Origin: a virus
Lineage: Duplodnaviria > Heunggongvirae > Uroviricota > Caudoviricetes
DNA length: 11,026 bases
IMG/VR virus record: IMGVR_UViG_2690316285_000015
Reading direction: 5' to 3' (one strand)
The translations under genes were made by a program, and so were the position numbers. Below are positions 10,269 through 11,026 of the stretch, piece by piece; position 1 is the first letter of the stretch; every line of letters begins with the position of its first letter. The notes beneath the pieces are model-generated. The model did not search any database, was not told where the DNA came from, and saw only the letters and a list, made by a program, of their open reading frames with translations.

Positions 10269-10814
10269 ATGGATATCTCATTAAGGTCATTAGCGAGACA
10301 GTACGGATACGATGAATCTACAGTTCGAACTTGGGTAGAAAAGGGAATGCCGACAGACACTGATTCAAACGCAAGAAGTTGGATTGTAGATAATGTACTA
10401 AAGCCGTTGCGTGATACTAATACAAAAGAACAAATTGAACAAGAGCGTTTGAAGAAGCTTTCAGCAGAACGGCAGTTAGCAGAATTAGAATTAGCAGAAA
10501 AGAATGGGCTGGTGGTCAGTACTGAATATATAGAACAGGTACTAACGGAATATCTATTCCAGGTCAAAACAGCAGTGCGTGCAATACCATCAAAAACTTA
10601 TCTTGAATTATTTGCACAATCAGATGCAAAGGATTTACGCGATGTATTAAGAACGCATATTGATAAAACATTATACCAATTAGGCTCAATGGAATTTGAG
10701 TTACCCGATGACATGGAAGTAATAGAGGATGGAAACAAACAAGAAGAAATTAACGAGGATACTGAAGAAAGTACTACCGACGATACAACCGCCGAAGATA
10801 CAGAAAACGAGTGA
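10269..10814 (+). CDS. Terminase small subunit, lambda Nu1-like
   Basis: N-terminal [25 protein letters not shown] parallels the lambda Nu1 HTH region (QLADIFGASIRTIQNWQEQGMPV); coiled-coil middle; strongly acidic C-terminus; 181 aa, the same length as Nu1; AAGGAA 7 nt upstream; large terminase start follows. Confidence 0.7.
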
Positions 10815-10998
10815 GTGGATTAGTAATGGTGTAGTTAAATTTGTGGACGGGCCGAATATGGGCCTTGATTGGGTTCCGTTTAGTTTCCAAAAAGAACCAA
10901 TGGATATAGCTCAAGAGCGAAGTACTAAAAAGATTGTACTTCAATCTTGTTCCCAGCTTTTGAAAACTACAGTACTACAATCAATTGCATTTAACTGA
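10729..10998 (+). CDS. Terminase large subunit (gpA-like), N-terminal fragment; frame interrupted by in-frame TGA at 10996-10998
   Basis: TSEWISNG...[15 protein letters not shown]...KKIVLQS parallels the lambda gpA N-terminus (TAVEWADANYY...WETLPFQRAIMNAM...VVKSA). After the TGA the +1 frame continues [10 protein letters not shown], which still resembles gpA (EHKQRNTLIWLP). Confidence 0.5.
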
Positions 10999-11026
10999 AG
11001 TGGTCAACAAAAACTGGCCACCGAGT

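Follow-up and report, generated by a model that had tools for sequence, protein, structure and literature searches.

Why does the large terminase gene at the right edge of this phage-derived DNA break off at an in-frame TGA after 89 codons, and why does the +1 frame stay open behind it? The window, that is, the whole 11,026-bp stretch analysed here, is the complete contig CXDI01000130.1 of the draft Shigella sonnei assembly GCA_001250495.1. We propose that the 'premature stop' consists of the first bases of an IS911 copy inserted in the large terminase gene of an S. sonnei prophage, and we put the probability of this reading at about 0.94.

Terminase genes at the right end of the window

The small terminase gene (TerS, Nu1-like; 181 aa) occupies positions 10269-10814 on the plus strand in the ORF listing and ends with a TGA at 10812-10814. 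Its product matches the Pfam family Phage_Nu1 (PF07471) under the gathering score (E = 7.6e-5), and a homologue in E. coli ESBLEC_MG48 carries the annotation 'terminase small subunit'. The longest possible gpA ORF overlaps the TerS gene by 86 nt. As the original prediction stated, the ORF at 10729-10998 (plus strand) starts with ATG, encodes an 89-aa protein (METNKK...SIAFN) resembling the N-terminus of gpA and is closed by the TGA at 10996-10998; the ORF listing, the translation and a match to PF05876 all agree with this description. The 5' fragment of the gpA-type large terminase thereby covers positions 10729-10995, and its count of 89 codons depends on the start at ATG 10729; the gene callers applied to relatives chose the equivalent of either this ATG or ATG 10858.

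Residues 53-86 of the fragment match GpA_ATPase (PF05876; E = 8e-4, under the gathering score for so short a fragment alone) and span only positions 14-47 of the 247 in the profile, while the GpA_nuclease domain (PF20454) is missing from the window itself. Since less than one fifth (< 20%) of the ATPase domain remains in the truncated gpA product and the nuclease domain is missing altogether, DNA packaging by this prophage can safely be regarded as lost.

Identity of the sequence behind the stop codon

The bases that follow the last gpA codon belong to an insertion sequence. Positions 10996-11026 are identical (31/31) to the annotated IS911 of Shigella phage Sf6 (AF547987), corresponding on the minus strand to the first 31 nt of the terminal inverted repeat on the orfB side (IRR). 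In the Sf6 element the end adjoining the 3' end of orfB reads TGAAGTGGTCAACAAAAACTGGCCACCGAGTTAGAG..., and the orfA end reads TGAAGTGGCACACTGAATTTGGCC... A blastn search for distant matches of the last 1.5 kb of the window in the phage collection returned only the final ~34 bases, at 100% identity, in the IS911 copies annotated in Shigella phage Sf6 and in a transposon of Salmonella phage SEN22; no phage record in this collection carries the terminase at the DNA level. With the gpA flank included, the match to IS911 is 100% (E = 5e-7).

Ends of IS3-family elements begin with TGA and can therefore mimic a nonsense or frameshift mutation. The terminal inverted repeat found here starts with 5'-TG, as is expected of an IS3-family member, and equals the IS911 end. 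Its first three bases (5'-TGAAGTGG...) are the TGA at 10996-10998 on the plus strand; the insertion point coincides exactly with the end of a full codon (AAC, 10993-10995), and this places the TGA in frame. Since the visible end is the orfB-proximal IRR, the transposase genes of this IS911 copy would be located on the minus strand. Of 5426 complete E. coli genomes, 257 contain the same terminus, at genes annotated as IS3-like IS911 or ISEc52 family transposases, and judging from the 31 nt that are visible the element may be either IS911 or a close relative with the same terminus, e.g. ISEc52. IS911 generates target duplications of 3 bp, and in Sf6 the triplet AAC flanks the IS911 copy on both sides. 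By analogy, the AAC at 10993-10995, which is the last gpA codon before the IS, is the predicted target-site duplication at this locus, where the window shows one junction only.

The +1 frame is indeed open to the window edge, as had been described, but it is not gpA-like as had also been claimed, because its DNA is the 31/31 IS911 end. The apparent continuation is the inverted repeat of IS911 read as protein. A +1 frameshift mutation, or a single-base assembly error, within a continuous terminase gene would account for the +1 frame being open over the last 10 codons of the window, and artefacts elsewhere in the assembly lend some plausibility to a base error. Ten open codons are expected by chance, however, the 31 nt past the stop are IS911 and not terminase, and the intact alleles of the gene continue in frame 0 with the unrelated LMANDPCNF; such a mutation or error is extremely improbable. 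The base-level error that the original prediction had considered is therefore replaced by two insertions, with gpA cut by IS911 and the recombinase gene at the other end of the window by IS2. A group I intron or an intein in terL was likewise considered and rejected, as the sequence is that of an IS end.

Intact alleles in related prophages

When the TerS protein of the window was looked up by exact sequence, numerous assemblies proved to contain this prophage. In L006, L008 and the ENA metagenome contig L003, a single uninterrupted large terminase gene comes next after TerS; its product is 589 or 632 aa long depending on the called start and possesses both GpA_ATPase and GpA_nuclease (for the 632-aa form, PF05876 at 6e-50 over positions 14-247 and PF20454 at 3e-40). 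At the DNA level these three alleles and that of S. sonnei 53G (L004) are identical to the window up to position 10995 and diverge from it exactly at 10996; the target is contiguous in the relatives, and the break coincides precisely with the IS end. Past the breakpoint the intact alleles continue with CTAATGGCTAATGATCC, so that the protein proceeds in frame as ...SIAFN-LMANDPCNF..., the residues right after ...SIAFN being LMANDPCNFAFGSS...; over a longer distance the DNA reads CTAATGGCTAATGATCCCTG... and the protein SIAFN-LMANDPCNFAFGSSSE, still in the original frame. The L001 allele likewise matches the window to 10995 and then continues with terminase sequence. Among the 5426 complete E. 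coli genomes, just one homologue of the TerS/TerL junction was detected, a distant one with 79% identity. In this homologue, from E. coli ESBLEC_MG48, the similarity to the window (79% at the DNA level) likewise stops exactly at 10995, and the sequence continues with SIAFNLMANDPCNFAFGSS.

These alleles also bear on the idea that TGA recoding or programmed ribosomal frameshifting yields a full-length terminase, for which the in-frame TGA itself is the one argument. Neither a conserved two-frame or stop-containing architecture nor a suppressor tRNA was found: the relatives have one uninterrupted ORF, and a tRNA scan of the window detected no tRNA genes and hence no suppressor tRNA. Moreover, the neighbouring TerS gene terminates with TGA, and the TGA in gpA is followed by an IS end. 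The original judgement that recoding is unlikely is thus confirmed, and we would give this possibility practically no weight. An alternative genetic code was considered as well and rejected.

The remaining part of the gene in the same assembly

Both ends of the window consist of IS sequence, 41 nt of IS2 at the start and 31 nt of IS911 at the end, which is the usual signature of short-read contigs breaking at multi-copy IS elements. By exact look-up of the products reconstructed for the region past the insertion, we located another contig of the same assembly, CXDI01000188.1, which encodes the remaining terminase (525 aa) followed by portal and protease-capsid genes. The 525-aa product has a GTG start and is on record once (CSQ86499.1, "phage terminase large subunit (GpA) [Shigella sonnei]"), while exact look-up of a predicted 542-aa C-terminal product starting MANDPC gave no record in the collection. 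The protein of contig CXDI01000188.1 spans GpA_ATPase positions 70-247 and the whole of GpA_nuclease (PF20454, 1.9e-40). Together with the N-terminal match in the window and the intact allele, both domains of a gpA-type terminase are accounted for, i.e. GpA_ATPase at the N-terminus and GpA_nuclease at the C-terminus. The original prediction had named two outcomes that would speak against it, an intact TerL after correction of the reads and a short protein conserved in relatives; we found neither of them, and a third explanation has emerged.

The first bases of contig CXDI01000188.1 (AATGATCCCTGTAAC...) lie 9 nt past the breakpoint in the intact allele, the 9 nt in between being CTAATGGCT; if the 3-bp duplication is counted, the contig starts 12 nt after the breakpoint. 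Neither IS sequence nor a target duplication is present at this start. The remaining terminase is hence contained in the genome and is separated from the N-terminal piece at the IS911 junction or at most 9 nt from it.

According to the scenario that we favour, IS911 (or an element with the same terminus) would have transposed into gpA directly after codon 89, counted from ATG 10729, and owing to this insertion at a codon boundary the element's own TGA would serve as an immediate stop. The assembler would then have halted 31 nt into the element, which it could not cross because IS911 is multi-copy in Shigella, and the other half of the gene would have become a separate contig. A full-length IS911, an element of about 1250 bp whose orfA and orfB are joined by a -1 frameshift, is presumably located between both contigs. 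The right-hand junction is absent from both of them, and we infer a clean simple insertion.

The late, IS-free start of contig CXDI01000188.1 would also be compatible with a small deletion or a complex IS-mediated rearrangement. The IS junction would in that case be real without being a simple insertion, an IS911-mediated deletion, an inversion or an inter-IS recombination having parted the two pieces of the terminase gene or deleted some bases. Also in favour is that the same element harbours several further IS copies and, in the recombinase gene, a deletion of 236 bp. On the other hand, the downstream part lacks nothing further and is followed by the portal and capsid genes in the same arrangement as in the intact relatives, contigs from de Bruijn graph assemblies commonly lose a few bases at their start, and IS2, at its nearby site in 53G, is inserted cleanly with a duplication of 5 bp. 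We consider a deletion or rearrangement of this kind unlikely, with a modest residual chance.

Finally, the contig end may reflect an assembly chimera or a mixed population, in which gpA is intact in most cells and the junction represents a minority insertion or a mis-join. The same scaffold contains a run of N and an inverted duplication at 9250-9341, which shows that it is not free of such irregularities. An intact unique gene would nevertheless have been joined by the assembler, whereas the two contigs break off at one and the same point or close to it, and the extension of 31 nt past the junction requires reads that cross it. A chimera or mixture appears very unlikely.

The IS911 insertion itself seems to be confined to this strain in the data at hand. 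Searches with the exact 40-nt gpA/IS911 junction gave 0 matches in viral_contigs and 0 in genome_contigs, so no independent genome in these two collections confirms this particular insertion. Neither the 46-aa nor the 89-aa form of the truncated N-terminal product gave a record when looked up by exact sequence.

In the intact relatives the terminase gene is followed, in this order, by a small ORF, a lambda-type portal, a protease-capsid fusion, a large Peptidase_S74-domain protein and a tail tube gene (Phage_tail_3). The alternative that the element is a satellite, as the original prediction had allowed, does not agree with these structural genes, which lie directly downstream in the intact relatives and on contig CXDI01000188.1. 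A phage satellite of the PICI-like type was rejected on the same grounds, since the portal, protease-capsid, Peptidase_S74-domain and Phage_tail_3 tail tube genes are found in the relatives and contig CXDI01000188.1.

An independent insertion in S. sonnei 53G

The window was also aligned to HE616528, which we take to be the S. sonnei 53G chromosome, in agreement with the S. sonnei names among the look-up records. Outside the IS ends, the window is 100% identical to it over the aligned blocks 2311-7413, 7408-9259 and 9342-10995. An IS2 copy situated 137 nt downstream of the IS911 site disrupts this gpA gene in 53G, in CP026802 and in numerous S. sonnei draft genomes. The gpA IS2 of 53G is 1331 bp long and flanked by a 5-bp duplication (GAATG), and when the element and one copy of the duplication are removed, the restored ORF is identical to the intact protein of L003. 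Contig CXDI01000188.1 shows that the strain of the window lacks this IS2. Because the two sites differ and the IS2 is absent from this contig, the IS911 event is independent of the IS2 event in 53G.

Instead of neutral IS bombardment, selection in S. sonnei for a disarmed prophage, locked in and barred from packaging, might lie behind the repeated hits in gpA, by IS911 here and by IS2 in 53G-type lineages, but we regard this as a doubtful suggestion with a small chance of being right. Additionally, 53G possesses an IS21-family element (IstA/IstB; L004 5163-7132, equivalent to window 7408-7413) inside a 183-aa ORF that is intact in the window (7168-7719). This element is absent from the window, indicating that the IS content of the prophage varies between lineages.

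The left end and other features of the prophage

At positions 1-41 the window matches, without a mismatch, the final 41 nt of the 1331-bp IS2 copy of S. sonnei 53G. In E. coli 08-00022 this IS2 end is found beside a gene annotated as 'IS3-like element IS2 family transposase', and it is multi-copy in 4486 of the 5426 E. coli genomes. Directly behind it, the 3' remnant of a large serine recombinase gene extends over 42-1038 on the plus strand, as recognized by Zn_ribbon_recom in Pfam and by alignment to the intact gene. The intact recombinase is 644 aa long (L017 3744-5678), and IS2 interrupts it after codon 234, with a predicted 5-bp target duplication GAGCA. In the alignment, window 42-88 corresponds to L017 4446-4492 and the window from 88 onward to L017 from 4728 onward; the remnant thus lacks 236 bp at window 88/89 (L017 4493-4727 absent), and its frame is shifted. 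Located 47 nt from the contig end, this lesion could be either a real deletion or an assembly artefact. The original suggestion that the prophage is defective is upheld, as the packaging gene (gpA) and the integration gene (serine recombinase) are both disrupted, in each case by an IS insertion.

In every genome examined (L014-L018 1730-5678), the PrkA (yeaG-like) and DUF444 (yeaH-like) genes are the immediate neighbours of the recombinase gene, and this constancy suggests a fixed integration site. At its far end, contig CXDI01000188.1 (L013) terminates with 32 nt of the left end of IS2 (5889-5920), just past the capsid module. This IS2 sits inside a 130-aa gene that is intact in 53G and is at least the third IS in this prophage copy.

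Compared with 53G and L003, the window contains 92 extra bases at 9250-9341. Of these, 9250-9322 form a perfect inverted copy of 9403-9475 and are followed by 19 N (9323-9341); the 10-mer AGATATCTCG opens the inverted copy (9250-9259) and is repeated right after the N run (9342-9351). The extra segment resembles an artefact produced by scaffolding or by a hairpin at the palindrome AGATATCT, and it destroys a 100-aa ORF called in the relatives (L003 8954-9256). The early region harbours two HNH endonuclease genes (window 2706-3260 and 4307-5050), one with HNH_3 and NUMOD4 motifs and the other with HNH. The second HNH gene is replaced by a DUF6998 protein in L006 and L008, and the early region is therefore mosaic.

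Significance and comparison with known systems

Hawkey et al. 2020 (PMC7373316) report an expansion of IS1, IS2, IS4, IS600 and IS911 across all Shigella species, by which many genes are inactivated differently from strain to strain. An IS insertion in a Shigella prophage gene is accordingly an ordinary event of an already known kind, and the biological importance of the present case is small, as gene inactivation by IS elements and breaks in short-read assemblies are well documented in Shigella (PMC7373316). The case adds an IS911 site specific to this strain, and it shows that the terminase gene of this prophage has been inactivated a second time independently. For annotation the locus suggests that a stop codon within a few dozen bases of a contig end should first be compared with IS termini.

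Three known systems are suitable for comparison. The intact allele resembles the lambda gpA-type terminase in its domains (PF05876 and PF20454) and in the gene order TerS-TerL-(small ORF)-portal-protease/capsid, but it is a distant rather than a close homologue, and in the window only ~89 codons of it are left upstream of the IS. The gpA IS2 insertion of 53G affects the same gene of the same prophage (flanks 100% identical), and there the split terminase is likewise called as N- and C-terminal genes; it differs in the element involved (IS2, 1331 bp, with the GAATG duplication) and in its site, 137 nt further downstream. The IS911 of Sf6, which is inserted in the ninG-like gene 54 (AF547987), shares with the present copy the terminal 31 nt, the interruption of a phage gene and the flanking triplet AAC. 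In Sf6, however, the element is complete (1249 bp, with orfA and orfB), whereas here the target is the large terminase and one end of the element is visible.
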